Positions 1-13,383 of a DNA stretch of 13,383 bases are shown here, piece by piece (the stretch's first letter is position 1; every line of letters begins with the position of its first letter). The translations under genes were made by a program, and so were the position numbers. Source of the DNA: Clostridia bacterium (GTDB lineage: Bacteria; Bacillota; Clostridia; Christensenellales; Aristaeellaceae); the NCBI GenBank assembly GCA_045599485.1, contig JAZRWA010000117.1, positions 1 to 13,383 on the forward strand, read 5' to 3'. Below the pieces are notes generated by a model. That model saw only the letters and a list, made by a program, of their open reading frames with translations, did not search any database and was not told the DNA's origin.

Positions 1-421
1 CATCGGTGAAGGAGTAGAATGCTTCCTGAATGACGGAAGGGAAAGGGGATGTCTGCTCGTTCAATCCGGACGCGTCATAGGGAACAGGCTGTCCCTCGAA
101 GTACTCGGGGTAAAGAATGGCCAGCGTGACGGTGGGACGAAGGATGCCGGAAGCGAGAAAGTCAGCGGCGGCAGAGGCATCGCTGACAGCAGAGACAGCG
201 GTTTCGCCGTTCAGCGAAGGATAAGTGATACCAATGGTACGGTAGAGTGTGGGGCTGCTGTCGTGATCGACAAAACGAAGTTCCACATTGTTTTCGAACT
301 ACTCGGGAACGATGATACGCATGGTATTCCAGAGGGTGTCACAGACTGAAAGATCCTACGCGAAGGCGGGAGAAGCTGCCAAACAGAACAGCAACAGAAT
401 CAGGAACAGTTTTGTTTTCAT
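1..421 (-). CDS. Secreted hypothetical protein (N-terminal ~140 codons; C-terminus lies beyond the window start), read through two in-frame TAG codons at 356..358 and 299..301
   Basis: ATG at 421..419 is followed by MKTKLFLILLLFCLAASPAFA, a typical Sec signal peptide with an A-x-A site. I checked the same frame (plus-strand triplets starting at position 2) codon by codon. It holds no TAA or TGA down to position 2, only the two TAGs. It is absent from the ORF track because TAG splits it and it is open-ended. No protein family recognised. Confidence 0.5.
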
Positions 422-453
422 ATGAGCCTGCCTTTTTGAGGATGTTGCGGGAA

Positions 454-1962
454 TTAATCGACGGGGTAGGAGTAGCCGAACATGCTGGAAAGATCACGAC
501 ATTTGTCGGGATTGACGTTGGCCGCACGGTTGATCATATCGCCCATGAACCACATGAAGGTGCTTCCGCCGCCGTCCAGATTGAGCGCCTGCGTGCAGCC
601 CATGCCAAGCATGTGGTTGGCGAGCCAACGGAAGGTGCAGCCGTTGGAGGTGGAGATACGTCCCTGTACCAGAACCGCCCAGTAATGGCAGGGTTCAACC
701 ATACCAAGGGCCATGCGCGGGTTTTTGTCGTTGTTAAGCACATTGCTGATGGAAAGGCTTTCGTTGACGATGCCGTCTTCAATGAGGATAGGACCGAAAG
801 CGAACGTATCGGTGACGCCCATCTGCAGGTATTCCTCGGCGGTGAGCTCATCACTGTCATAGACTCGCATGGTGCCGTCGTTGAACAGCGCCAGTACATC
901 AAGCGGCGGGAAGTTTTTGTTGCCCTTGGGTCGGGTGACGGTGGAGATGATCTCGCCGCCGCGGATGATGATGCCTTCGGGCAGTTTGTTATAATGACGG
1001 ATGCCGAAATAGTCGTCGCTGAAGGCAAACAGCGCGTTGTACTGCTTGACAATATCAAAGGGACCGATCAGATTGTAGCCGTCCGCCTTGCGTCCTTTGC
1101 CGAGCATGGCAGAAGGCAGCGAGTTGGGAGTGCAGTAGATTTCTGCTTCGAACCATGTCATCAGGGGGCTCTTGGTGGAGTAACGGCGGATGGCGATGGA
1201 AAGATCATGGCTGATGTAATACCACTGACCGTCATCCCGGTTGGAGTAGGAGAAGGGTTTGGCGGATTCATCCGCCAGGAAGTGCTCCTCATTCAGTTCG
1301 GGAAGTTCCACCTGCTTCTGGGGCCCCTTGGGGGTTGCAGTCACCTTGGGCGTCGGGGTAGGCTTGGGAGTGGGAGACGGCGTAGGGGAAGGCGTGGGCA
1401 GCGTGAAAAGCAGCTCCTGTTCCCCGGCGGTCAGATAGCCGGTCTGCTCGTGACCGAGATACGACTGAAAGGACTTGGTTGCGGTGATCAGGGTCTTGTT
1501 GTAGGTGCCCGCGGTAGCGGTGGAGTTGAAATAGCGCCAGAGGATCAGCTGCTTCTTGGCTGCCAGCACATCATCACCGCTGCATCCGTCATAGAAATCA
1601 CGGTAGCTGTTGCCGGTATATTCGGGCAGCGTAACAGATTCGCCGTTCAAAGCAGCAGAGAGCTTCCGGCTGTAGGCATTATCCGAATAGATCAGCGTTT
1701 GCAGCTCCTGCGTGGCGATACCTGTCTCGGCAAAGCCGCAATCGGATTCAAACTGGCGGATACGCTTTTCGGTATCGGAAGTGAAATCCTCTGTGAACTT
1801 ATTGGAAGTGAAATATCCCAGTTCGTACAGACGCTTTTTAAGCGCTTTGACGTCATCACCGCTGCTGCCGTTTTTGAGGGTACGGTAAGTGCCCTCCGCG
1901 GAGGCAAAGCTCAGAAGGAACAACAGCAGGAAGGTTACGATAAGCAGAATTGTTTTTTTCAT
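454..1962 (-). CDS. Secreted cell-wall-associated protein: signal peptide, two peptidoglycan-binding (PG_binding_1-like) repeats, Pro/Thr linker, C-terminal phosphodiester glycosidase (NAGPA/DUF2233-like) domain
   Basis: 502-aa ORF. N-terminus MKKTILLIVTFLLLFLLSFASA|EG. Two repeats of the G..GDDV..L...L...GY pattern (SSGDDVKALKKRLYELGYF, CSGDDVLAAKKQLILWRYF). TPSPTPSPTPKPTPTPK linker. C-terminal ALNLDGGGSTFMW motif typical of the phosphodiester glycosidase family. TAA stop at 454..456. Confidence 0.85.
   Translation of the reverse strand: MKKTILLIVTFLLLFLLSFASAEGTYRTLKNGSSGDDVKALKKRLYELGYFTSNKFTEDFTSDTEKRIRQFESDCGFAETGIATQELQTLIYSDNAYSRKLSAALNGESVTLPEYTGNSYRDFYDGCSGDDVLAAKKQLILWRYFNSTATAGTYNKTLITATKSFQSYLGHEQTGYLTAGEQELLFTLPTPSPTPSPTPKPTPTPKVTATPKGPQKQVELPELNEEHFLADESAKPFSYSNRDDGQWYYISHDLSIAIRRYSTKSPLMTWFEAEIYCTPNSLPSAMLGKGRKADGYNLIGPFDIVKQYNALFAFSDDYFGIRHYNKLPEGIIIRGGEIISTVTRPKGNKNFPPLDVLALFNDGTMRVYDSDELTAEEYLQMGVTDTFAFGPILIEDGIVNESLSISNVLNNDKNPRMALGMVEPCHYWAVLVQGRISTSNGCTFRWLANHMLGMGCTQALNLDGGGSTFMWFMGDMINRAANVNPDKCRDLSSMFGYSYPVD
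1318..1401 (-). repeat. Low-complexity Pro/Thr-rich linker-coding repeat inside the 454..1962 CDS
   Basis: Encodes LPTPSPTPSPTPKPTPTPKVTATPKGP. On the plus strand this appears as reiterated GG(N)G(T/A)(N) units (ggcgtcggggtaggcttgggagtgggagacggcgtaggggaaggcgtggg). Confidence 0.6.
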
Positions 1963-2067
1963 CTGATTTTTTTCCTAAATCGCATTCGTGCATTTACGAC
2001 AGCACGCCCCGAGCCCGAAAACAAAGCATTTCCGGGCCCGGAGCGGGCAGAAAAAGCATAGAAATAA

Positions 2068-3108
2068 TTATTTGGCGTTTTTGACCTGATCCCAGAAGGT
2101 GTTGTAGAGGCTCAGGGTCTTATCATCCAGGTCGTGATAGAATTCGCAGCGGGCAATCACTTCGTCGGAGGGATTGATGGTCTCGTTTTCGGTATACTCT
2201 TCACCCATCAGATCGATGGCACCCTGGTTGGGGCTGGAGTAGAAGATGTATTCACAGTTCATCTGGGCGATGTCGGGACGGCAGAGGAAGTCGATCAGCT
2301 TCTCGGCGTTTTCCTTGTTCTTGGCATCGGCGGGGATGACGAGGGGATCGATCCAGATGTTGCTGCCTTCCATGGGCACCACATAGTCAAGGTCTTCGTT
2401 GCCGTCCATGGCGTACAGCGCGTCGCCGCTGTACACAACAGCCAGAGCGGCCTCACCCTTGATCATAGCGTCCTTGGTTTCATCCACATAGTAGGCTTTG
2501 ACAAGGGGTTTCTGTTCCAGGAGGGAGTTTTTGGCTTCGTTGAGCTCTTTGATGTCGGCACTGTTGGCGCTGTAGCCATTGACTTTGAGGCCGATCAGCA
2601 TCGCGTCACGCAGAGAGAGCATCATGAAGATCTGGTCGGCATACTGCTCGTCCCAGAGAATCTTCCAGGAGGAGGCGTCCTCAGCGCTCACTTTGGTGGT
2701 ATCGAAGAGGATGCCCAGCGTGCCCCACATGAAGGGGACGGTGAACTTTCCTTCCGGATCGTAGTCGGCATTGCGAAGATCCTCACGGATATAGGCGAAG
2801 TTGGGGATGTTGTCAAAGTTGATCTCCTGAATGAGCTCTTCCTTGATCATGCGCTCTACGCAATAATCGGAAGGTACGACCAAATCGTAGCTGCCGCGGC
2901 TGGTGCGCAGGGCAATCATCATGTCTTCATTTTCGGTAAAGTACATACAGTTGACCTTGATGCCGGTTTCGTCGGTGAACATATCGAGAACGGCGGGATC
3001 CATGTAGTCGTACCAGTTGAAGAGATTGACTACTTCTTCAGCGGATGCGACAGAGAGGAGGGAGATGAGCAGCAGCGCTGCCATGAGCAGGGAAACGAAT
3101 TTTTTCAT
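2068..3108 (-). CDS. potD: Spermidine/putrescine ABC transporter substrate-binding protein
   Basis: 346-aa ORF with a cleavable signal peptide (LLSVASA|EE). PotD-like sequence throughout (NLFNWYDYMDP..., FTVPFMWGTLGI, SNIWIDPLVIP). GGAGG RBS upstream of the ATG at 3108. Last gene of the regulator-potABCD string. TAA stop. Confidence 0.93.
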   Translation of the reverse strand: MKKFVSLLMAALLLISLLSVASAEEVVNLFNWYDYMDPAVLDMFTDETGIKVNCMYFTENEDMMIALRTSRGSYDLVVPSDYCVERMIKEELIQEINFDNIPNFAYIREDLRNADYDPEGKFTVPFMWGTLGILFDTTKVSAEDASSWKILWDEQYADQIFMMLSLRDAMLIGLKVNGYSANSADIKELNEAKNSLLEQKPLVKAYYVDETKDAMIKGEAALAVVYSGDALYAMDGNEDLDYVVPMEGSNIWIDPLVIPADAKNKENAEKLIDFLCRPDIAQMNCEYIFYSSPNQGAIDLMGEEYTENETINPSDEVIARCEFYHDLDDKTLSLYNTFWDQVKNAK

Positions 3109-3157
3109 TTGACTGTCCTCCGTTTTTTAATATGCATAAGCCATATGGCCGGATGCC

Positions 3158-3934
3158 TTATTTTTTTTCGTCTGCTGTCATGGTGCGGCGATTGACAACA
3201 ATCAAAAGTACCAGCATGACAACAAACATGATACTGCTCAGGGCGTACATGGTGGGCTTGATGCCCTTGCGTGCCTGAGAATAAATGAGGGTGGAAAGAT
3301 TCTGCACCAGCGGCGAAGTGGTGAAATAACTGATGGTGAAGTCGTCCAGAGACAGGGTGAACGCGAAAATGGCACCGGTGACCACGCCGGGCATGATCTG
3401 CGGAATGATCACGTGGCGAAGTGCGTAGGACGGTGTTGCACCAAGGTCAAGCGCGGCCTAATACGTGTTCTGATTCATTTGCGACAGCTTTGGCATGACT
3501 GATACGATGACATAGGGGATGTCAAAGGTGATGTGAGCCAGAAGCATCGTGACGTATCCGCGTTCCACTCTCGTGAAGATGAAGAGCAGCATCAGCGAGA
3601 TACCTGTAACAATGTCGGGCATGGTCATGGGAATGTTGTTGAGGGCCAGCATGAGACCCTGCGGACGCTTTTTCATCGCATGGATGCCGATGGCGGCAAG
3701 GGTGCCAAGAAGGGTGGCGAATACCGTAGCCAGAAGAGCGATCGTGACGGTGATGAAAAGTGCCTGCATGATATCGGCATTACCGAACAGTTCACCATAC
3801 CAACGGAAGGAGACGCCTTCAAATTTGGCACGGCTTGTGCCGCTGTTGAAGGAGAAAACGATCATGACGATGATGGGGATGTAAAGCAAAAGCAGCAGCA
3901 GCGCCAGATAGATGCGTTTAAGTGCTTTTGTCAT
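3158..3934 (-). CDS. potC: Spermidine/putrescine ABC transporter permease, full length only if the in-frame TAG at 3458..3460 is read as sense
   Basis: ORF-track pieces 3458..3934 and 3158..3412 share one frame (both starts are 2 mod 3). The stretch between them translates as ...SQMNQNTY-[TAG]-AALDLGATPSYALRHVIIPQIMPGV..., the ABC-permease EAA loop. Total 258 codons, a normal PotC length. ATGA start/stop overlap with potB at 3931..3934. TAA stop at 3158..3160. Confidence 0.85.
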
Positions 3935-4995
3935 ACGGCACCGCCTCCTTCTCCCTCGGGATCGACTTTGCGCAAAATTCCGATGGAAATGAGCATCAAA
4001 ATCATCATGATCAGCGACATGGCGCTGCCGGGGTTCCAGTCGGAGATCGTGGCGGAAAGGAACTTGCTTTCAATCAGATCGCCGAAAAGCTGCACCTTGC
4101 TGCCGCCAAGCAGTCGGCTGATGTAGAAGGTCGTCACAGCGGGCATGAAAACCATGGTAATACCGCTGACCACGCCGGGAATCGAAAGAGGCATGGTGAC
4201 TTTGTAGAACGTCTGCCATTTGTTGCAGCCCAGGTCCATCGCCGCTTCGGAGAGCTTGTAGTCCATTTTGTTAAGGACATTGTAGATAGGGAAAACCATG
4301 AACGGCAGGAAGTTGTAGATCATGCCGAACAGTACGGCACCGGAGGTGTTGAGCAGCTTCAGACGACCAATGCCGATCCATTCGAGGAAGCTGTTGATGA
4401 TACCGTTGCTTTCCATCAGTTCCATCAGTGCGACGGTACGCAGCAGGAAGTTCATCCACATGGGAACGATGAAGAGCACGATCAGTACAGGACCGGCTTT
4501 GAAGCCGCGCTCCGTCATGAAATGCGCTGCAGGGTAACCGAGCAGCAGGCAGGCGACTGTGCACAGGAACGCCATCCACACGGAGAACACAAGCGTGGAA
4601 ATATTGACGGCACCGTAACCGAGGCCGAGGTCTTCGGCGGTGATACCCATTTCGGCATATACGGCAAGGTCATCCGCCATATTTTTGCGGGCCAGATAGT
4701 TGCTGTCCCAGAAAGCGGCGAAATTATCCAGTGTCAGGGCGCCGTTGACATCGGTAAAGGCGTAATAGGCCACCAACAGACACGGAACGACCGTGAAGAT
4801 GATGATCCACAGTACATAGGGGGAAGCGAACAGGGGGCGATTGACGCCGTGATTGTGCTTAACATACCCGGCAACGAGTACAATGAAGCCAATCAGGCCC
4901 AATCCCATCAGCAGATAGGCCCAGATGGGCAGCTCAAACGTTGTCAACTGCGACCGCACCTCCCGCTGCATAGGGATTCCAGTCCTCGGTGGCAT
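3931..4995 (-). CDS. potB: Spermidine/putrescine ABC transporter permease
   Basis: 354-aa ORF, multi-TM, with the EAA loop [28 protein letters not shown]. The true start is more likely the ATG at 4971..4969 (GAGGA about 11 nt upstream) than the one at 4995, which has no RBS. Overlaps the 3' end of potA. TGA stop overlaps the potC start. Confidence 0.9.
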
Positions 4996-6028
4996 GCATG
5001 ATGTGAATGTTGAAGGGGACGATGCTCAGACCAACGCGGCTTCCTTCAGGCTGCATCGTGGTGGAATGCACCTTCCAGGTGGAGTGGCCGGCGTCAATGA
5101 TCATTTCATAATGTACGCCCTTGAACAGTACGCTCTTGACAGTGCCGGTGATCTGACCGATATCTTCGCCCACGACCATGATATCTTCGGGTCGTACAAC
5201 AACATCCACGGGTACATTTTCTCCAAAACCGGAGTCAACACACTGGAAGCGGGTGGAACAGAATTCAACCAGCTCGTCACGGATCATGGTGCCCCGGAAA
5301 ATGTTGGATTCGCCAATGAAGTTGGCGACGAAGGCATTTTTGGGTTCATCGTAAATATCCTTCGGCTTGCCGATCTGAAGGATTTTGCCGCTGCGCATGA
5401 CCACGATGGTATCACTCATGGTCAGGGCTTCTTCCTGATCGTGCGTCACGTACAGGAAGGTGATGCCCAAGCGCTGCTGCATGTTTTTGATCTCCAGCTG
5501 CATGTCCTTGCGGAGCTTGAGATCCAGGGCCCCCAGAGGTTCATCCAGCAGAAGCATTTCGGGCTCGTTGACCAGCGCGCGGGCAATGGCGATGCGCTGC
5601 TGCTGACCGCCGGACAGAGAATCGACATCACGTTTGCCGTATCCCTGAAGGTTGACCAGGTCAAGCATTTTGTTGACTTTTTTATCGATTTCTCCACGGC
5701 TCATTTTTTTGATCTTCAGGCCGAAAGCAATGTTGTCGTGGACGTTCAGATGTGGGAAAAGCGCATACTTCTGAAAAACGGTGTTGACGCGGCGCTTGTA
5801 GGGAGGAAGACCGACGATGTCCTTGCCTTCGAACATGACCTGACCGGAGGTAGGAGACTCGAAGCCGCCGATGATGCGCAGCGTGGTGGTTTTGCCGCAA
5901 CCGGAGGGCCCCAGCAGGGTGACAAATTCCTTTTTGCGGATATAGAGGCTGATATTGTCCAGAACCGTAACGCCGTCATAGTCCTTGCAGAGGTTCTGAA
6001 GATGAATCATATAGGGTGAATCGCTCAT
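4934..6028 (-). CDS. potA: Spermidine/putrescine ABC transporter ATP-binding protein
   Basis: 364 aa. Walker [13 protein letters not shown] signature LSGGQQQR, Walker B LLLDEP, C-terminal TOBE-like regulatory domain. AAGGAG RBS 9 nt upstream of the ATG at 6028. TGA stop. Confidence 0.95.
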
Positions 6029-6052
6029 GAAGGCAATCTCCTTTATATTTTA

Positions 6053-6598
6053 TCAGAAGCTTGGGGGATTGGAGACCCAGATGACTTTGGCAGGGCGTTT
6101 GCCGGTATTGATCAGCCGGTGCGGCGCGGTCGGGTGAATACAGAAGCTGCTGCCGCATTTGACACGGTGCCGCTGCTCGCCGAGCTTGAGCACAACGCTG
6201 CCGGAGAGAACATAACCGAATTCCTCTCCTTCGTGCGGAGGAAGTTCGAAGGACTCTCCTCCGGGACCGATCTAAAGCAGGATGGGTTCCATGTCGTTTT
6301 TCTGAGCGCTGGGTACCAGCCAGACAACGCTGCCCCGGAGTGCTTCTTCATCGGTTTTTTCAAACATGTCGACAGCGTCAAATACAATTTTTTCGTCATC
6401 GTCGTTTTCTGAAAAAAAGGTTTTGAGATCACTGCCGAGGCACTCGAGCATATCAGTCAGCGTAGCAATGGAGGGCGACGCCAGGTCGCGCTCCACCTGC
6501 GAAATGAAGCCTTTGCTCAGTTCACAGCGGTCGGCCATTTCTTCCTGAGTCAGGTTGCGCTGCAAACGCAGACGGTGCAGCTTTTCACCGATGTTCAT
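6053..6598 (-). CDS. XRE-family HTH + cupin transcriptional regulator (PuuR-like architecture), full length only if the in-frame TAG at 6272..6274 is read as sense
   Basis: N-terminal HTH (MNIGEKLHRLRLQRNLTQEEMADRCELSKGFISQVERD). After ...MEPILL-[TAG] the same frame continues IGPGGESFELPPHEGEEFGYVLSGSVVLKLGEQRHRVKCGSSFCIHPTAPHRLINTGKRPAKVIWVSNPPSF, a complete cupin barrel. It ends at TGA 6053..6055, 24 nt before the potA start. 181 codons is the normal length for this family. Confidence 0.85.
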
Positions 6599-6656
6599 GT
6601 TCTGCCTCTTTGATGCGTGAAGTTTAGTAAAAGTAAATTTTGTGTGAAAGTCCGGA

Positions 6657-6673
6657 GTTTAGAATTACTAAAC
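6657..6673. promoter_or_regulatory. Candidate operator: inverted repeat GTTTAG-N5-CTAAAC, with a further GTTTAGTAA copy at 6622..6630
   Basis: Perfect 6-bp arms separated by aatta. The arm plus flank (GTTTAGTAA, read on the minus strand) recurs on the plus strand at 6622..6630. Both lie in the leader of the XRE-cupin/pot operon, downstream of its putative -10. Confidence 0.3.
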
Positions 6674-6688
6674 AGGCGAACGCAAATA

Positions 6689-6717
6689 AGTAAACCATAA
6701 AACATGGGAGATGTCAA
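6689..6717 (-). promoter_or_regulatory. Putative sigmaA promoter for the regulator-potABCD operon
   Basis: On the minus strand: TTGACA (6717..6712), 17-nt spacer, then TGgTTTACT (-10 at 6694..6689, 4/6 match with an extended TG). Position and orientation fit the ATG at 6598. Confidence 0.35.
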
Positions 6718-6739
6718 TATGATTTTTATTAACAATTTG

Positions 6740-6768
6740 TTGCAAAGCGACTGGAATTCTGGTATAAT
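6740..6768 (+). promoter_or_regulatory. SigmaA promoter of the ctsR-mcsA-mcsB-clpC operon
   Basis: TTGCAA (6740..6745), exactly 17 nt, then TGgTATAAT (perfect -10 at 6763..6768 with an extended -10 TG at 6760..6761). Lies 50 nt upstream of the ctsR ATG. Confidence 0.7.
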
Positions 6769-6774
6769 AGCAAT

Positions 6775-6791
6775 GGTCAAAGTTAGTCAGT
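6775..6791 (+). promoter_or_regulatory. CtsR operator (direct heptad repeat)
   Basis: GGTCAAA-GTT-AGTCAGT compared with the published CtsR box RGTCAAA-NAN-RGTCAAA. The first heptad is perfect and the second matches 5/7. It sits immediately downstream of the -10 and overlaps the expected transcription start, as in autoregulated ctsR/clpC operons. Confidence 0.7.
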
Positions 6792-6818
6792 GAACAGCAT
6801 TGACCGGAGGAAGCCTAT

Positions 6819-7310
6819 ATGCGTTTAAGTGATGCAATCGAACAATTTATCAAAGAAATGATGCAGGCGGGAGAGCAGCCCGGCATTGATCTGAAAAGGA
6901 ATGAGCTGGCAGATTATTTCCATTGTGCGCCTTCGCAGATCAATTATGTGCTCTCAACCCGCTTTACACCCGATCATGGGTATGTGACCAGCAGTCAGCG
7001 CGGCGGCGGCGGTTATATCCGTATTGTGCGGATCGTACGCCGTCCGGAGGAACAATTGAACTATCTGCTCAACGAGCGGATCGGCAATGCCATTACCGCT
7101 GCGGACGCAATGATACTGTGCGGGCAATTGTTGGAAAATGATGTGATTACCGAGGATGAAGCTTTGCTGATGAAATCTGCGGTTTCGCAGGCAGCATTTG
7201 CGGTGCCCATTCCTGAGAATGTAAAGGACGCGGTGCGTGCCAAGGTGCTGCGCAGTATGCTGCTTGAAGTAATGCAGAGAAAGGACGGCGGGCGAGATGA
7301 TGATGTGTGA
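6819..7310 (+). CDS. ctsR: Class III stress-gene transcriptional repressor CtsR
   Basis: 163 aa. MRLSDAIEQFIKEMM... N-terminus and the diagnostic ...SQRGGGGYIRIVRI glycine-rich winged-HTH loop. GGAGGA RBS 8 nt upstream. First gene of the operon. TGA stop. Confidence 0.93.
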   Translation: MRLSDAIEQFIKEMMQAGEQPGIDLKRNELADYFHCAPSQINYVLSTRFTPDHGYVTSSQRGGGGYIRIVRIVRRPEEQLNYLLNERIGNAITAADAMILCGQLLENDVITEDEALLMKSAVSQAAFAVPIPENVKDAVRAKVLRSMLLEVMQRKDGGRDDDV

Positions 7311-7824
7311 AGAATGCGGAAAGCGTCCTGCGATCTTGAACGTTACAGTGCTATTTGCTGGGAAAAAGATCAGCCGCAGTCTTTGCCCTGTGTGCGCGGC
7401 CAAAATGCAGCGCGGGGACGCGGCGGGCGCCCAGAGCGCGGTCATGGGGTCTTTGCGTACAGAGGAAAGTGTTCAGCACCTCAGCTGCCCTCAATGCGGA
7501 ACGACCGGAGAAAAGCTGCTGAAGGAGGGCCGGGTCGGCTGTGCAGAGTGCTATAAAACCTTCAGATCGATTCTGAAGGATGTTCTGATGAGCCTGAACG
7601 GTGTGGATCATCATGTGTCGGACGGATGGGAAGAGGATCATTCGGATGCTCCGGAGGAAATTCAGCTGGAGGTCGCGCAGATGACCGAACCGTCTGATGA
7701 AGAGAAAAAAGCGGCTTCACTGCGGGAAGCTTTGTTTGAAGCGGTGCAGAGAGAAGATTTTGAGGAAGCAGCAAGGCTGCGGGATCAGATCCGCGCAGCG
7801 GAAAGCGTGAAGCATGAAGGATGA
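7297..7824 (+). CDS. mcsA: McsA (protein-arginine kinase activator; zinc-finger + UVR motif protein)
   Basis: 175 aa. Paired CxxC motifs (CEECGKRPA..., CPVCAAK, CPQCG...GCAECY) and a C-terminal UVR motif (REDFEEAARLRDQIRAAE). Overlaps the ctsR stop. Three consecutive ATGs at 7297..7305 leave the start ambiguous by up to 2 codons. TGA stop. Confidence 0.88.
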   Translation: MMMCEECGKRPAILNVTVLFAGKKISRSLCPVCAAKMQRGDAAGAQSAVMGSLRTEESVQHLSCPQCGTTGEKLLKEGRVGCAECYKTFRSILKDVLMSLNGVDHHVSDGWEEDHSDAPEEIQLEVAQMTEPSDEEKKAASLREALFEAVQREDFEEAARLRDQIRAAESVKHEG

Positions 7825-8800
7825 AATCATCAACGGTTCTGTCACGCTGAGAAGAAATTATGCCGATCTTCCTTTTGACGCGTTGAAAAACAGCGATACC
7901 GCCCTGCCAATCCTGACGCGCGTGACGACGCGGCTGCAGCAGGAAGAAGAGACATGGATCGCACTTCCCGAATCACGCATGGACGAAGAAGGAAAAAGGG
8001 TTTTTCGATTTCTGCGGTTGATCAGCAACGATATTGACGATGCTGTGAATGCACAGCTGTTTGTGCTGAAAGGGGACAGCGCAGCGGTACAGGCCGCGGC
8101 AGCGGATCATGTGGCGGTGACTGTAACTCGTTCTGCTGATGATCTGGAGTTTTCCTATAATAAATGCAAAGATATCATTCGAAAACTGGAGGACAGTCAT
8201 CCCTATGCAAGAACGGGGGAATTAGGTTATCTGACAGCACGCCCCTGCGATGCGGGAAGCGGACTGAGAGCTTCCCTGCTGCTGCATTTGCCAATGCTTC
8301 AATTCTCCCGGCAGCTGCCGATGGCGATGAAGCTTTGCGGAGACAAAGGACTGCTTTTGCGGCCTGAAACCGTAGCGATGCCGGGTCAGGCGCCGGCACT
8401 GTACCTGATATAGAACCGGGTTACCATGGGCAAAACCGATGAGGAGCTGATGACGGCTGTAAAAAAAGGCGCGGAAGTTCTGATAGCACTTGAACGAAAA
8501 CAACGGGAAGAAGCCCGGGTAAAGCAATCGGATGGGCCGCTTGATGCCGTCTATCGTGCGTATGGAGAGGCACGCTATGCCCGCCGATATACACGGGCGG
8601 AATGTGGGGTGCTGTGGTCCAGAATGACGCTGGGGTATTCATTGGGCGTCATGCTGGTGCGTCCGCCGGAGCTGGATAAGCTGTGGAGCATGGCGTTTGA
8701 AAACCAGCGGGAATGGAAGGCCGCGGCGGCTCAGCAGGCAGTCAGCGAGGATGTACTGCGGGCCAGAAAAATCAGAGAATTACTGAGCGGAGGTGCCTGA
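7814..8800 (+). CDS. mcsB: McsB-type protein arginine kinase homologue (divergent), full length only if the in-frame TAG at 8411..8413 is read as sense
   Basis: ORF-track pieces 7814..8413 and 8426..8800 share one frame. The junction reads ...GQAPALYLI-[TAG]-NRVTMGKTDEELMTAV..., matching the conserved McsB ...QISNQxTLGxSE... segment. The phosphagen-kinase signature GYLTARPCDAGSGLRASLLLHLP is present upstream. 328 codons. Sits between mcsA and clpC as expected. TGA stop overlaps the clpC ATG. Confidence 0.85.
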
Positions 8801-11202
8801 TGGCAACCTATAACAGATTGAATGAAAAAGCAAAGCGTGTTCTGGAAACGGCGCGTACGGAAGCGGCAAATCTGATGCAAAACTGTATCGGTACAGAGCA
8901 TTTGCTGCTGTCACTGCTGATTTGCGCCCCGGAGGATGTGCCGGAGCTGCCGGAGAGCCTGAATCCCGAAATGGTACGCTCCGCCATTCGCATTCTGAGC
9001 GCGGGCAACGGACAAGGTGAGCTGCCGGATGAGCTGACGCCAAACGCAAAAAAAGTGCTGGATAACAGCTATCGCATTGCCCGCCAGTTTCAGCAGAACT
9101 ATGTGACCGCGGCGCATTTGTGGCTGGCGTTATTGGATGAAGAAGAGGGCATGGCCTCACGCATTCTGAACGCACCCGGCATTGACCGAAAAAAGCTGCG
9201 GGAAAATGCTGCACGGAAGGCTGCGGGGGAAAACAATGCGCCTTCCAAAGAAAAGGAAGAAAAGACACTGCTGGATCAGTATGGTATCGATCTGACGGAA
9301 AAAGCGCGTTGCAACGAGCTGGATCCTGTGATTGGACGAGATCGTGAGACTGAGCGTATCATTCAGATCTTATCCCGCCGTACCAAGAACAATCCGGTAC
9401 TCATCGGCGAACCCGGTGTGGGAAAAACGGCTGTCGCAGAAGGACTGGCTGAAAAAATCATCAGCGGACAGATTCCCGAGACGCTGGTTGGAAAACGGCT
9501 GATCAGCCTGGATACCGGTGCGTTGATTGCGGGTACCAAGTTCCGCGGAGAGTTTGAAGATCGGCTTACGGGGCTGATGCGGGAAGTGAAAGAAGCCGGC
9601 GATGTGATTCTGTTTATCGATGAACTTCAGAACATCGTCGGCATGGGCAAGGGTGAAGGCACGATGGACGCAGCCAATATCCTAAAGCCCATGCTCTCCC
9701 GCGGTGAGCTGCAGTGCGTCGGCGCTACTACCACAGATGAGTATCGTAAGCACATTGAAAAGGATGCAGCGCTGTCCCGTCGCTTTCAGCCTGTCATGGT
9801 GGACGAACCGACCGAGGAAGAAGCGGTCATGATCCTGAAGGGACTGCGTGATAAATACGAAGCGCATCATCGTGTGCACTTTACCGATGAAGCCCTTGAA
9901 GCGGCAGTGAAGCTGTCCGCACGCTATGTGGCAGACAGGTGCATGCCCGATAAGGCGGTGGACCTGATGGACGAGGCAGGCTCCAGGGTACGTATTGCTT
10001 CCTTTACGCCTCCGCCCGATCTTAAGGAGCAGGAAAGTTCACTGCAGGCAATATCCCGCGAAAAGCAGGAAGCCATCGACCGTCAGGATTATGAGCGTGC
10101 CGCGGCTTTACGGGATGATGAGCATGCCATCCGGGCTGAGATGGATCGAAGCAGAACGGAATGGGAGAACAAGAAGCTATCTTCGGTTGGTGTGGTCAGC
10201 GAAGAGGATATTGCCGCTGTGGTATCCGCGTGGACGGGTATTCCGGTACAGCGGATGACAGAAGTGGAAAGTGAAAGGCTTTTGCACTTGGAAGAGATCC
10301 TGCATCAGCGCGTGGTGGGACAGACCGAGGCGGTTTCGGCAGTATGCCGGGCGATCCGCCGCGCAAGGGCAGGCCTGAAGGACCCCAAACGCCCCATCGG
10401 CAGCTTTTTGTTCCTCGGTCCGACAGGCGTCGGAAAAACGGAGCTCAGCCGGGCCCTGGGCGAAGCGATGTTCGGGGATGAAAACGCGCTGATCCGCCTG
10501 GATATGAGCGAGTACATGGAAAAGCATACCGTATCCAGAATGGTAGGCGCACCGCCCGGCTATGTAGGATACGAAGAGGGCGGTCAGCTGACGGAAGCAG
10601 TACGGCGCAGACCCTATTCAGTGGTGCTGTTTGACGAAATCGAAAAGGCGCATCCCGATGTGTTCAATATGCTGCTGCAGGTATTGGAGGACGGACGCCT
10701 TACCGATAATAACGGGCGCACAGTCAGCTTCCGAAATTGTATTATCGTCATGACCTCCAACGCGGGTGCGCAGGCGATCAACGAAAACCGCGTGCTTGGC
10801 TTTGGCAGCAGCGGCGCGGCGGATTATGATCGTATGCGCGACAGCGTGAAGGATGCGCTGAAGAGGATGTTCAAGCCGGAGTTTTTGAATCGAATCGATG
10901 AAACGGTGATCTTCCATGCGCTGACGAAGGAAGAGATCAGGCAGATCGCTGCCCTGATGCTGGAACAGATGAGAAAACGCCTAAACGAAAAGGGAGTGCG
11001 GCTCAGCTTCAGCAACGAAGCCATAGCACTACTTGCTGACGGGGGATTTGATGAAAAGCTCGGTGCGCGTCCGCTGCGCCGGGAAATTCAACGGAGCGTA
11101 GAGGACAGCCTCAGTGAAGAGCTGATCGCAGGCAGGCTGAAGCTGGATGATAGCATCCGCATGTATGTAAAAAACGGAAAGATCGCTTTTAAAAAGCAAT
11201 AA
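8800..11202 (+). CDS. clpC: ATP-dependent Clp protease ATP-binding subunit ClpC (class III stress AAA+ unfoldase)
   Basis: 800 aa starting [22 protein letters not shown] (Clp_N repeats). Walker A motifs GEPGVGKT and [11 protein letters not shown] linker ([12 protein letters not shown]). C-terminal ClpB_D2-small domain. I prefer the ATG at 8800 (TGATG overlap with the mcsB stop) to the track start at 8713, which lies inside mcsB. TAA stop. Confidence 0.95.
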
Positions 11203-11237
11203 AAAACAGCCCCGAAGGCAGCACGCTTTCGGGGCTG
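11201..11237. terminator. Bidirectional intrinsic terminator between convergent clpC and the HD-hydrolase gene
   Basis: 13-bp GC-rich stem CAGCCCCGAAGGC / GCTTTCGGGGCTG (11207..11219 pairs with 11225..11237, one G-U pair) with a 5-nt loop. An A6 tract at 11201..11206 gives a U-tract for the minus-strand transcript. Confidence 0.75.
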
Positions 11238-11249
11238 TACATTATGGAA

Positions 11250-11894
11250 TTAATGTTCTCCGTCCCACTACAGCAGGAATTCATCAAGGAAAGTATGCAT
11301 GAAACGATCGCGTTCCGCGGCAATGCGGGCGGCGGAGGGGGTGTTCATCATGTCCTTGAGGAGGAACAGCTTTTCGTAAAAGTGATTGACTGTGGAAGAG
11401 ACAGAACGACGGTATTCGAAGGCGGACATGTTGGCTGTCGGCGGTACGGCCGGGTCGTGAAGCGGGCGGTTGCGGCTGCCGCCGAAAGCGAAGGCTCTAG
11501 CGACACCGATTGCGCCGATGGCATCCAGACGGTCAGCGTCCTGCACGCATTTGCCCTCGAGTGTTTTCGGCGTGACGGAATCGGTACCGCGGAAGGAAAT
11601 CTCGCCGATGATCTCAAGGATAGCGTTGGCGGTATCCTGTATTACGTCATTCTATCGAAGGAAGGACGTCGCACGCAAAAGCCCCTCGTGCGTGTCGGGG
11701 GAAAGCTTGAAATCATCCACATCATGAAGGATTGCTGCAAGCGCGGTGATGAACGGGTCGGCACCTTCCTGCTTTGCAAGTGTCAATGCCAAGCGGTAAA
11801 CACGCTGAGTATGGCTGAAATCATGCCCGCTGAAGTCATTCACGAAAACGCTTTGCGCAAAGGAGAGCGCTTTTGAGATGAGTGCGTCTCCCAT
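11250..11894 (-). CDS. HD-domain metal-dependent phosphohydrolase (YedJ/YpgQ-like), with an in-frame TAG at 11652..11654 and a second TAG at 11268..11270, six codons before a TAA
   Basis: ORF-track pieces 11652..11894 and 11268..11546 share one frame. The gap translates [35 protein letters not shown] and leads into [21 protein letters not shown] motif ...AAILHDVDD and the DADRLDA motif are present. If TAG is sense the frame continues -WDGEH- to TAA at 11250..11252, 12 nt from the terminator stem. If TAG terminates here the end is 11268. Confidence 0.8.
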
Positions 11895-11895
11895 T

Positions 11896-12441
11896 TTAAA
11901 CCTCTAACGTATGATAGACTTCGCCGTCAAGGTTCTTCCACTCGAAATGGCAGTTGTCCATGATCATGTAGCTATGGGCAGTGTTCTCCTTCGGCAGGGA
12001 TACGGAACCGGGGTTGAGATACAGATTGTGATTGCCAAAATCCAGCCATGAAGGCACATGCGTGTGACCGTGCAGCAGAATGTCACCATTTTGCAGCGGC
12101 GGCGGCGTCATGGTGTTGAATACATGACCATGAGTGGCGTAAATCAGACGGGAACCGGCTTCAAAAATGGCGGTATCGCTCATGATGGGGAATTGCAGTA
12201 CCATCTGATCCACTTCTGCATCGCAGTTGCCGCGGACACAGATGATACGGCTCGACAGTGGATTCAGCATGGCAATGACGGATTTGGGAGCGTATTCCTC
12301 AGGCAGGTCGTTGCGGGGACCGTGATACAGGATATCACCGAGAAGCAGCAGCCGATCGGCATTTTCAGCCTCAAAGCGCTGAAGGAGTTGACGGCAATAA
12401 TATGCGGAACCGTGGATATCGGATGCAATCATCAGTTTCAT
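11896..12441 (-). CDS. yfcE: YfcE-family metallophosphoesterase (MJ0936-type phosphodiesterase)
   Basis: 181 aa. [12 protein letters not shown]..., [24 protein letters not shown] and GHTH motifs, collinear with E. coli YfcE. GGAGG RBS 6 nt upstream. TAA stop 1 nt before the HD-gene ATG, which suggests translational coupling. Confidence 0.9.
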
Positions 12442-12480
12442 GGGAGACCTCCGGAAAAGTAAATAAAAAAAGTCCTTTCA

Positions 12481-12510
12481 ATTATAAAGCAGCAGAGAGG
12501 GAAAAGTAAA
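12481..12510 (-). promoter_or_regulatory. Putative sigmaA promoter for the yfcE/HD-hydrolase pair
   Basis: On the minus strand: TTTACT (12510..12505), 18 nt, TATAAT (12486..12481), about 40 nt upstream of the yfcE ATG. Confidence 0.4.
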
Positions 12511-12523
12511 GGAAAAACTGATT

Positions 12524-12552
12524 TTGACAGTTCGTACTCAAAATGCTATAAT
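12524..12552 (+). promoter_or_regulatory. Consensus sigmaA promoter of pdp
   Basis: TTGACA (12524..12529), exactly 17 nt, TATAAT (12547..12552). A GAGAGGAA RBS precedes the ATG at 12580. Confidence 0.7.
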
Positions 12553-12579
12553 AAAGTACCATGTTTGAGAGGAATCGAT

Positions 12580-13383
12580 ATGAATATCATACAGATTATT
12601 GAACACAAGAAGAATAAAATGGTGTTGACGGATCAGGAAATTGATTATTTTGTCAAAGCAGCGGCGGACAGGGAGCATTCTCCGGTGATGGATTATCAGC
12701 TGGCGGCACTGCTTATGGCCATCCGGCTTAATGGTATGACGCCTGAGGAGACGACAAGATTGACGATTGCCATGCGTGATTCCGGCGATGTGGCGGATTT
12801 GTCGGGCATTCCCGGCATAAAGGTGGATAAGCATTCCACCGGCGGCGTTGGCGACACAACTACGTTGGTGTTAGCTCCTTTGGTAGCAGCCTGCGGAGTG
12901 CCCGTGGCGAAGATGAGCGGTCGGGGATTGGGACATACCGGCGGCACATTGGACAAACTGGAATCGATTCCGGGCTTCAGCGTTGATATTGATGAAGAAC
13001 GATTTGTAACACAGGTGACGGAAATTGGCATTGCGGTTGTTGGTCAGACAGGGCATCTTGCCCCCGCGGACAAGACCCTGTATGCATTGCGGGATGTTAC
13101 CTCTACGGTAGACAGCATGCCGCTTATTGCTTCTTCCATCATGAGCAAAAAGCTGGCTTCTGGTGCGGATGCCATCGTGCTGGATGTAAAGACGGGGTCG
13201 GGTGCGATCATGCGTACGCTGGATGATGCCATTGCTTTGGCCCAGGAGATGGTACAGATCGGAACATTGGCCCATAAACCCGTGATCGCTGTTGTGACGG
13301 GGATGGAACAGCCGTTGGGAACGCATGTCGGCAATGCGTTGGAAGTAAAGGATGCCATCGAAGTGCTTGCGGGAAAAACAAAG
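12580..13383 (+). CDS. pdp: Pyrimidine-nucleoside (thymidine) phosphorylase, N-terminal 268 codons; continues past the window end
   Basis: Not in the ORF track because it has no stop in the window. My manual translation found no stops: [25 protein letters not shown]...[25 protein letters not shown]...[25 protein letters not shown]...[21 protein letters not shown]...SSIMSKKLA. These are diagnostic glycosyl-transferase family 3 / Pdp motifs. Confidence 0.93.

Follow-up and report, generated by a model that had tools for sequence, protein, structure and literature searches.

Reassigned stop codons are known from phages, eukaryotic nuclei, bacteria and archaea, and the systems closest to the one described here each share part of its features. 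In crAss-like and other gut phages, TAG is translated as glutamine under genetic code 15 (PMC9523058, bioRxiv 10.1101/2021.08.26.457843). As in our locus, the codon is TAG, the genes are split by standard annotation and a suppressor tRNA with the anticodon CUA is presumed; however, these phages recode mainly their late genes, and the host keeps the standard code. Nuclear codes in which UAR is read as glutamate occur in peritrich ciliates and in Blastocrithidia (PMC12153298). They resemble the probable change reported here in that a stop codon beginning with UA is reassigned to glutamate, but they are eukaryotic and nuclear, UAA shifts along with UAG, and eRF1 is involved. These UAR-to-Glu codes bear the numbers 30 and 31. 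Bacterial reassignments of UGA, to tryptophan in code 4 and to glycine in code 25 (PMC8629427, PMC13462651), are likewise lineage-wide chromosomal changes from stop to sense, presumably tied to the loss of the sole release factor for the codon, although UGA and RF2 are concerned there and UAG and presumably RF1 here. An archaeal code with every TAG read as pyrrolysine (bioRxiv 10.1101/2024.09.30.615893) similarly has TAG dropped as a stop and scattered in ordinary genes, but its residue is pyrrolysine supplied by pyl genes, whereas the TAG columns of our locus are canonical Glu columns. Finally, amber-suppressor laboratory strains and RF1-deleted recoded E. coli show that bacteria are viable with a tRNA(CUA) reading UAG and without RF1 (PMC11903333). 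This is the mechanism that we infer for the present lineage; those strains are engineered, whereas the lineage is natural and selection appears to keep TAG at functional Glu positions.

According to the 2021 Codetta screen, all known bacterial stop reassignments involve UGA (PMC8629427); a 2024 preprint counted three bacterial codes (10.1101/2024.09.30.615893), and a 2026 screen of 2.7 million NCBI assemblies reported CGG, CGA, AGG, TGA and now ACA, with no bacterial TAG reassignment (10.64898/2026.04.02.715157). Our literature search returned no report of a bacterial chromosome reading TAG as a canonical amino acid. Stop-codon reassignment as an event has precedents; what is new is the combination of codon, residue and domain of life.

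We analyzed a stretch of 13,383 nucleotides (hereafter, the window), which is the whole contig of an NCBI assembly, and found evidence that an uncultured Clostridia bacterium has probably reassigned UAG throughout its lineage. In contrast to phage code 15, the TAGs of the window lie in chromosomal housekeeping genes (ctsR-mcsA-mcsB-clpC, potABCD) syntenic with those of standard-code Clostridia, and the inferred residue is Glu rather than Gln, with no Q in any of the family columns that correspond to a TAG. Unlike in the UAR-to-Glu codes, TAA is still a stop codon (6/13 genes), and the organism is a bacterium with the RF1/RF2 division of labour. Compared with UGA-recoded bacteria, the genome is neither small nor very AT-rich (52–53% G+C).

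The starting point was the preliminary description, made from the letters of the window, of an HD hydrolase gene with two in-frame TAGs, the second followed by WDGEH-TAA. We located both on the minus strand, at codons 81 and 209, as follows:

11250..11894, minus strand: HD-domain phosphohydrolase gene, 214 aa with both TAGs read, ATG at 11894, stop TAA at 11252-11250
11652..11654, minus strand: first TAG of the HD gene, codon 81, in a variable family column, context ...ATSFLR-TAG-NDVIQD...
11268..11270, minus strand: second TAG of the HD gene, codon 209, in an invariant Glu column, context ...DEFLL-TAG-WDGEH-TAA
11250..11267, minus strand: tail W-D-G-E-H and true stop TAA, with W210 and G212 conserved in orthologues

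The protein obtained by reading both TAGs matched the Pfam HD family (E = 1.4e-9) and the solved structures 3djb (2.5e-56), 3dto (2.3e-49), YpgQ 5dqv (7.4e-32) and YedJ 3gw7 (2e-16). By its metal-binding motif and full-length similarity, it is assigned to the HD-domain phosphohydrolases of the 3djb / YpgQ / YedJ type (PF01966). Against the YedJ equivalog model NCBIfam NF007515 it scored 84 bits, compared with a cut-off of 286, and by this score it is a relative of YedJ and not an equivalog. For comparison, we used the best 119 non-lineage matches of thousands obtained from a search of 5.8 billion proteins (56–63% identity). Nearly all of these orthologues are 213–214 aa long, and they aligned end to end with the read-through protein, covering 97–100% of it. 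The residues H28, H57, D58 and D119-A-D-R-L-D-A are invariant in the 119 orthologues and present in the window protein. As had been noticed from the letters, the first TAG lies between the HD motif (H57 D58) and the invariant QDADRLDA (residues 118–125), so that a protein ending at this position would lack the latter half of its metal site. Its column is variable across the orthologues (E 40, S 37, K 14, A 13, Q 0).

The column of the second TAG, in contrast to this variable one, is Glu in 119/119 orthologues, and also in 3djb and 3dto; the next column is Trp (W210) in 119/119, and Gly212 is found in 116/119. The C-terminal end falls exactly at the position of the window's TAA in 114/119 orthologues. 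The family thus has an E-W-[DNE]-G tail, which the window protein has only when the second TAG is read, and the earlier proposal that a sense TAG restores a family-like x-W-D/N-G tail is supported by this alignment of C-termini. The acidic-Trp ending given in the preliminary description is real, since the solved Bacillus-type homologues end with the same E-W-N tail (...FMKEWNA in 3djb and ...FLSEWNGD in 3dto), but its attribution to YpgQ was not confirmed, because 5dqv aligns only to residue 204. The conserved E-W tail, together with the orthologue ends at the TAA, indicates that standard-code annotation mis-calls the HD gene, as had been anticipated. Indeed, in the sister genome SRR27361835, where the tail reads WDGKR-TAA, the gene is recorded as a 29-aa ORF and a 174-aa ORF, and the latter stops at the second TAG.

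On the upstream side, the HD gene starts one base after the TAA of a metallophosphoesterase gene (11896-12441, minus strand). This layout is kept in the sister genome, and the two genes are, as judged from sequence, one operon. Downstream, RNA folding predicted a terminator:

11201..11238, both strands: bidirectional intrinsic terminator, common to the HD gene (minus) and clpC (plus)

The stem pairs 11238-11228 with 11216-11206 and is followed by a U-run. On the minus strand, the hairpin has a folding energy of –24.6 kcal/mol (z = –5.5; 0/200 shuffles folded as well), and on the plus strand, the clpC side, –29.5 kcal/mol (z = –7.2). The hairpin that had been described beside the TAA is therefore present and strong, but it begins 11 nt past this stop rather than 12 nt. 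It was not among the hits of a pattern scanner, because the apical part exceeds the scanner's loop limit, and was revealed by folding.

Beyond the scope of the preliminary description, an in-frame TAG also interrupts three other genes of the window:

7814..8800, plus strand: mcsB, 328 aa, in-frame TAG at 8411-8413 (codon 200), Pfam ATP-gua_Ptrans E = 9e-25
3158..3934, minus strand: potC-type ABC permease gene, 258 aa, in-frame TAG at 3460-3458 (codon 159), which is the E of the EAA motif
6053..6598, minus strand: HTH_3 + cupin regulator gene, 181 aa, in-frame TAG at 6274-6272 (codon 109)

In each case, reading TAG as sense joins a pair of fragments into a normal gene; the fragments recorded in the NCBI assembly are McsB of 199 aa, PotC of 158 aa and a regulator of 108 aa. 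The window contains five in-frame TAGs in four genes (5/4171 codons), and with three further TAG sites in relatives, eight are known overall. At the TAG sites, decoding proceeds codon for codon, with neither gap nor frameshift. No in-frame TAA or TGA and no frameshift was found in the window genes, TAG being the sole interrupting codon. We also determined which codons end genes. The complete window genes end in TAA (6) or TGA (7), and none of the 13 ends in TAG. When 12 further genes from a sister contig were added, TAG ended 0/25 non-redundant genes of the lineage, whereas 34/214 long ORFs (16%) end in TAG in 21 other Clostridia/Bacillota loci (binomial P of about 0.013). The stretches that follow the four internal TAGs showed no RNA structure (z = –0.1 to –1.0), and the TAGs have no sequence context in common. 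ARAGORN detected no tRNA genes in the window, nor in those loci of the lineage and the outgroup that were scanned, and Rfam likewise had no matches in the window and the related loci scanned.

Two points on gene calling in the window may be added. The longest clpC ORF (829 aa, from 8713) overlaps mcsB over window positions 8713-8802, whereas the database call is 800 aa from 8800; the shorter call overlaps the mcsB stop by one base (TGATG), which suggests translational coupling and that the 829-aa ORF is over-extended. Spurious antisense ORFs are common in GC-rich coding DNA, and long ORFs run antisense to real genes at 412-2061(+), 2134-3195(+), 3922-5001(+), 4925-6019(+), 12538-12834(–) and 12871-13326(–); those that were tested had no Pfam matches. 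The candidates orf98 and orf151 (minus strand, 12538-13326) were rejected as artefacts, since they run antisense to a gene for pyrimidine-nucleoside phosphorylase on the plus strand (12463-13383), which runs off the contig.

We then compared the window with its relatives. A narrow lineage lies close to it, with contigs from at least four other samples: SRR27361835 (L082, L084, L086, including L001), ERZ27247129 (L083, L091), SRR21150938 (L085), SRR21150928 (L087) and a second NCBI contig; beyond this lineage, the next ClpC relatives have 71% identity. Among the matches listed by a ClpC scan of GTDB genomes, identity did not exceed 59%, even though relatives with 71% are available elsewhere, and the protein searches, including JGI, showed no lineage members in JGI proteins. 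Local tblastn searches of the ClpC loci for the regulator, PotC and LacI returned no matches. The sister genome SRR27361835, with 85–87% nucleotide identity over window positions 5880-13383, keeps TAG at codon 109 of the HTH-cupin regulator, codon 200 of McsB and codon 209 of the HD gene. At HD codon 30 it has TAG where the window has CAG, and at HD codon 81 it has CAG where the window has TAG. In L085, too, the gene call for the regulator is 108 aa long, which agrees with the calls in the window and in L082. A LacI-type gene on the sister contig carries a TAG at codon 271, a codon that is TAG in two genomes of the lineage and CAG in ERZ27247129. Overall, close relatives differ at 4/7 of the TAG sites that could be compared. 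Of the genes called on the 18.9-kb sister contig, 12/14 end in TAA or TGA, and in the other two, those of HD and LacI, the apparent TAG end is a TAG that is read through; a further 8.3 kb of sister contig and two 4-kb contigs contained no new TAG sites.

The sequences past the TAGs are under purifying selection. Past the TAG, the counts of synonymous/non-synonymous differences between the window and the sister genome were 26/0 for the regulator, 27/11 for McsB and 30/13 for the HD gene, in proportions that agree with those found before the TAG. Similarly, the 67 codons beyond the LacI TAG differ from those of ERZ27247129 by 15/0.

Two further observations were made in the relatives. In L083 (3311-4072), just past the left end of the window, a gene for the SCIFF peptide, a typical Clostridia marker, is followed by a partial ORF that has no Pfam record and is taken to be a putative radical-SAM maturase. 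A PotC homologue on a 1,113-bp ENA contig (P0320) joins an unrelated N-terminal half to a C-terminal half nearly identical to the lineage PotC and is probably a chimeric assembly.

Only TAG interrupts these otherwise intact, conserved genes, it is kept across samples, the codons beyond it are under purifying selection, and it is never used as a stop. From these observations, we consider with high confidence that TAG is translated in this Clostridia lineage. It is also likely that TAG no longer terminates at all and acts as an ordinary sense codon, with glutamate as the best-fitting residue.

The strongest rival concerns the residue, namely that TAG is sense but means glutamine, as in code 15, and is read by a tRNA-Gln with the anticodon CUA. 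Such an anticodon can arise from CUG by one substitution, the classic supE route, which speaks for Gln. Moreover, three of the four TAG swaps within the lineage are with CAG (HD codons 30 and 81 and LacI codon 271), the fourth being with Glu (PotC), and if TAG were Gln, these three exchanges among close relatives would be synonymous transitions. Given that raw E/Q replacements occur at a rate of only 1 in 296, they would at face value strongly favour Gln. We discounted them on two grounds: the T/C transition is the fastest single step (T/C differences at four-fold sites 17%, T/G 6.9%), whereas a standard Glu-to-Gln change needs a G/C transversion, and all three swap sites are in variable columns. 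This discounting is a matter of reasoning rather than of measurement.

The residues at the TAG sites point the other way. To identify them, we compared a fully syntenic standard-code outgroup (ENA ERZ1038426 + ERZ1060567, 59% G+C) in which all genes are intact, in the order NAGPA-potDCBA-regulator-ctsR-mcsA-mcsB-clpC; its 181-aa orthologue of the regulator likewise carries Cupin_2. The outgroup codons are GAG (Glu) at the PotC site, GAA (Glu) at the McsB site and AGC (Ser) at the site of the HTH-cupin regulator, and a nearer standard-code relative, L090 (57.7% G+C), has GAG (Glu) at LacI codon 271. With HD codon 209, the nearest standard-code residues at the five informative sites (PotC, regulator, McsB, LacI, HD209) are E, S, E, E and E, that is, Glu at 4/5; the Ser facing the regulator site counts against the Glu assignment. 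From 15 pairs of orthologues, we derived an empirical lineage-to-outgroup substitution matrix. Glu codons of the lineage are aligned with outgroup Glu in 248/349 cases, and Gln codons of the lineage with Gln in 107/173 and with Glu in only 9/173. Fisher's exact test separates the TAG sites from Gln codons (P = 8.5e-5) but does not distinguish them from Glu codons (P = 1). Over the five sites, Glu was the best residue, with likelihoods relative to it of 8e-4 for Asp and 1.5e-5 for Gln, corresponding to an advantage of Glu over Gln of ~7x10^4.

Family alignments agree with the matrix. The PotC site is E in 20/20 homologues, including the 98%-identical PotC from sister samples, and E. coli PotC also has E at the position of the window's potC TAG. 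No TAG site aligns with Gln in the outgroup or in the family columns (Q 0/119 at both HD sites and 0/20 in PotC). Under the glutamine reading, Gln would fall on the invariant E209 and on the Glu of the EAA motif while the 98%-identical sister keeps Glu. It is at constrained Glu positions that TAG has not been exchanged, which is expected if TAG means Glu and unexplained if it means Gln. Serine was also considered, given that 50/54 distant McsB proteins have Ser at the McsB site, and was rejected because the nearest outgroup has Glu there. Provided that TAG is translated, these comparisons make glutamate its likely meaning, and we regard glutamine as unlikely.

A second rival retains termination: TAG could be a stop recognised by RF1 and partly read through by suppressor or near-cognate tRNAs, giving truncated and full-length products. 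The rarity of TAG among the window codons and its quick replacement at more than half of the compared sites (4/7) would fit such a mildly deleterious codon. However, TAG ends none of the 25 genes, and the TAGs lie amid catalytic cores and in single-copy genes (mcsB, potC and the HD gene), the truncated products of which would be useless. In addition, selection past the TAGs is as strong as before them, and no read-through context or structure is held in common, so we consider a leaky stop very unlikely.

TAG is also the pyrrolysine codon, and some Bacillota carry pyl genes, which favours a reading of TAG as pyrrolysine or as some other non-canonical amino acid. This would be the bacterial equivalent of the code with all TAGs as pyrrolysine that has been proposed for archaea (bioRxiv 10.1101/2024.09.30.615893). 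Yet in our lineage, TAG occupies invariant Glu columns and swaps with GAG or CAG in near-identical relatives, which would be unexpected for a bulky lysine derivative. The TAG-bearing genes are those of the HD hydrolase, mcsB, potC, the HTH-cupin regulator and lacI, with no methylamine methyltransferase among them, and RNA structure is lacking downstream of the TAGs; this reading is thus highly improbable. Least credible of all is that the TAGs are nonsense mutations in decaying genes or sequencing or assembly errors: a standard-code gene caller does split each TAG-bearing gene, but the TAGs recur in independent assemblies from different samples, with which the repeated truncated gene calls agree, the interruptions are only ever TAG and never TAA, TGA or a frameshift, and the mostly synonymous changes downstream (26/0, 15/0, 27/11 and 30/13) contradict both pseudogenes and sequencing errors.

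The outgroup also bears on how glutamate may have come to be the meaning of TAG. None of 29 outgroup genes ends in TAG (ERZ1038426 = L088 and ERZ27279976 = L092), whereas ~16% would be expected; two TAG-ended long ORFs in a crude outgroup count were rejected as antisense artefacts. TAG may therefore have been abandoned as a stop before the reassignment. In addition, the G+C content falls stepwise, from 59% in the outgroup through 57.7% in L090 to 51–53% in the TAG-bearing lineage. The absence of TAG ends in the outgroup and the drop in G+C suggest the capture of an already unused codon, followed by G-to-T changes at GAG.

Two peculiarities of these loci stand apart from this question. The mcsB of the clade (window 7814-8800; L088 9044-10000) is unusually divergent, with 36% identity to the outgroup, compared with 71% for clpC, and at the position of the Ser in the Q-[IV]-S-N-Q motif, which is present in 50/54 other McsB, it has Glu or TAG; the function of this arginine kinase may have changed in the clade. 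The outgroup tyrS has an in-frame TAA (L092 5911-5913) where the 99.99%-identical L088 has AAA; either one nonsense SNP or a fault of the assembly accounts for it, and it has no bearing on TAG.

With glutamate as the preferred meaning of TAG, the following sequence of events can be proposed. In an ancestor, TAG stops would already have been rare, as in the outgroup, and the free codon would then have been captured; G-to-T changes at GAG would have made the present TAGs as the G+C content fell from 59% to about 52%. A tRNA with the anticodon CUA, charged with Glu, would be encoded elsewhere in the genome, and release factor 1 would be lost or blind to UAG. RF2 can serve TAA and TGA stops, and it would terminate at both in this lineage. 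Codons 81 and 209 of the HD gene would then each specify an amino acid, and the hydrolase would be a single protein of 214 residues with the C-terminus ...EFLL-E-WDGEH. In a variant of the decoding step, a non-discriminating GluRS would load the tRNA with Glu, and GatCAB would amidate only part of the product, by a route established in bacteria without GlnRS. UAG would then be read as a Glu/Gln mixture, and such partial amidation would reconcile the Glu columns with the CAG swaps. On balance, the comparative evidence inclines us to the view that this is the first natural bacterial code with UAG as sense, read as Glu by a tRNA(CUA), with RF1 dispensed with and the codon captured while unused in an ancestor of 59% G+C.

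As for consequences, public databases at present give all TAG-bearing genes of the lineage in split or truncated form. Genetic-code engineering could profit from a natural orthogonal tRNA that decodes UAG, together with its charging enzyme, from a Bacillota bacterium. The reassignment appears to be recent and still rare, with 5 TAGs in 4171 codons and standard-code relatives at 71% ClpC identity, so that codon-capture and ambiguous-intermediate scenarios could be tested against each other site by site. If the proposal is true, a free-living bacterium in which UAG specifies an amino acid would extend the list of bacterial codes and would provide a natural test of the dispensability of RF1.
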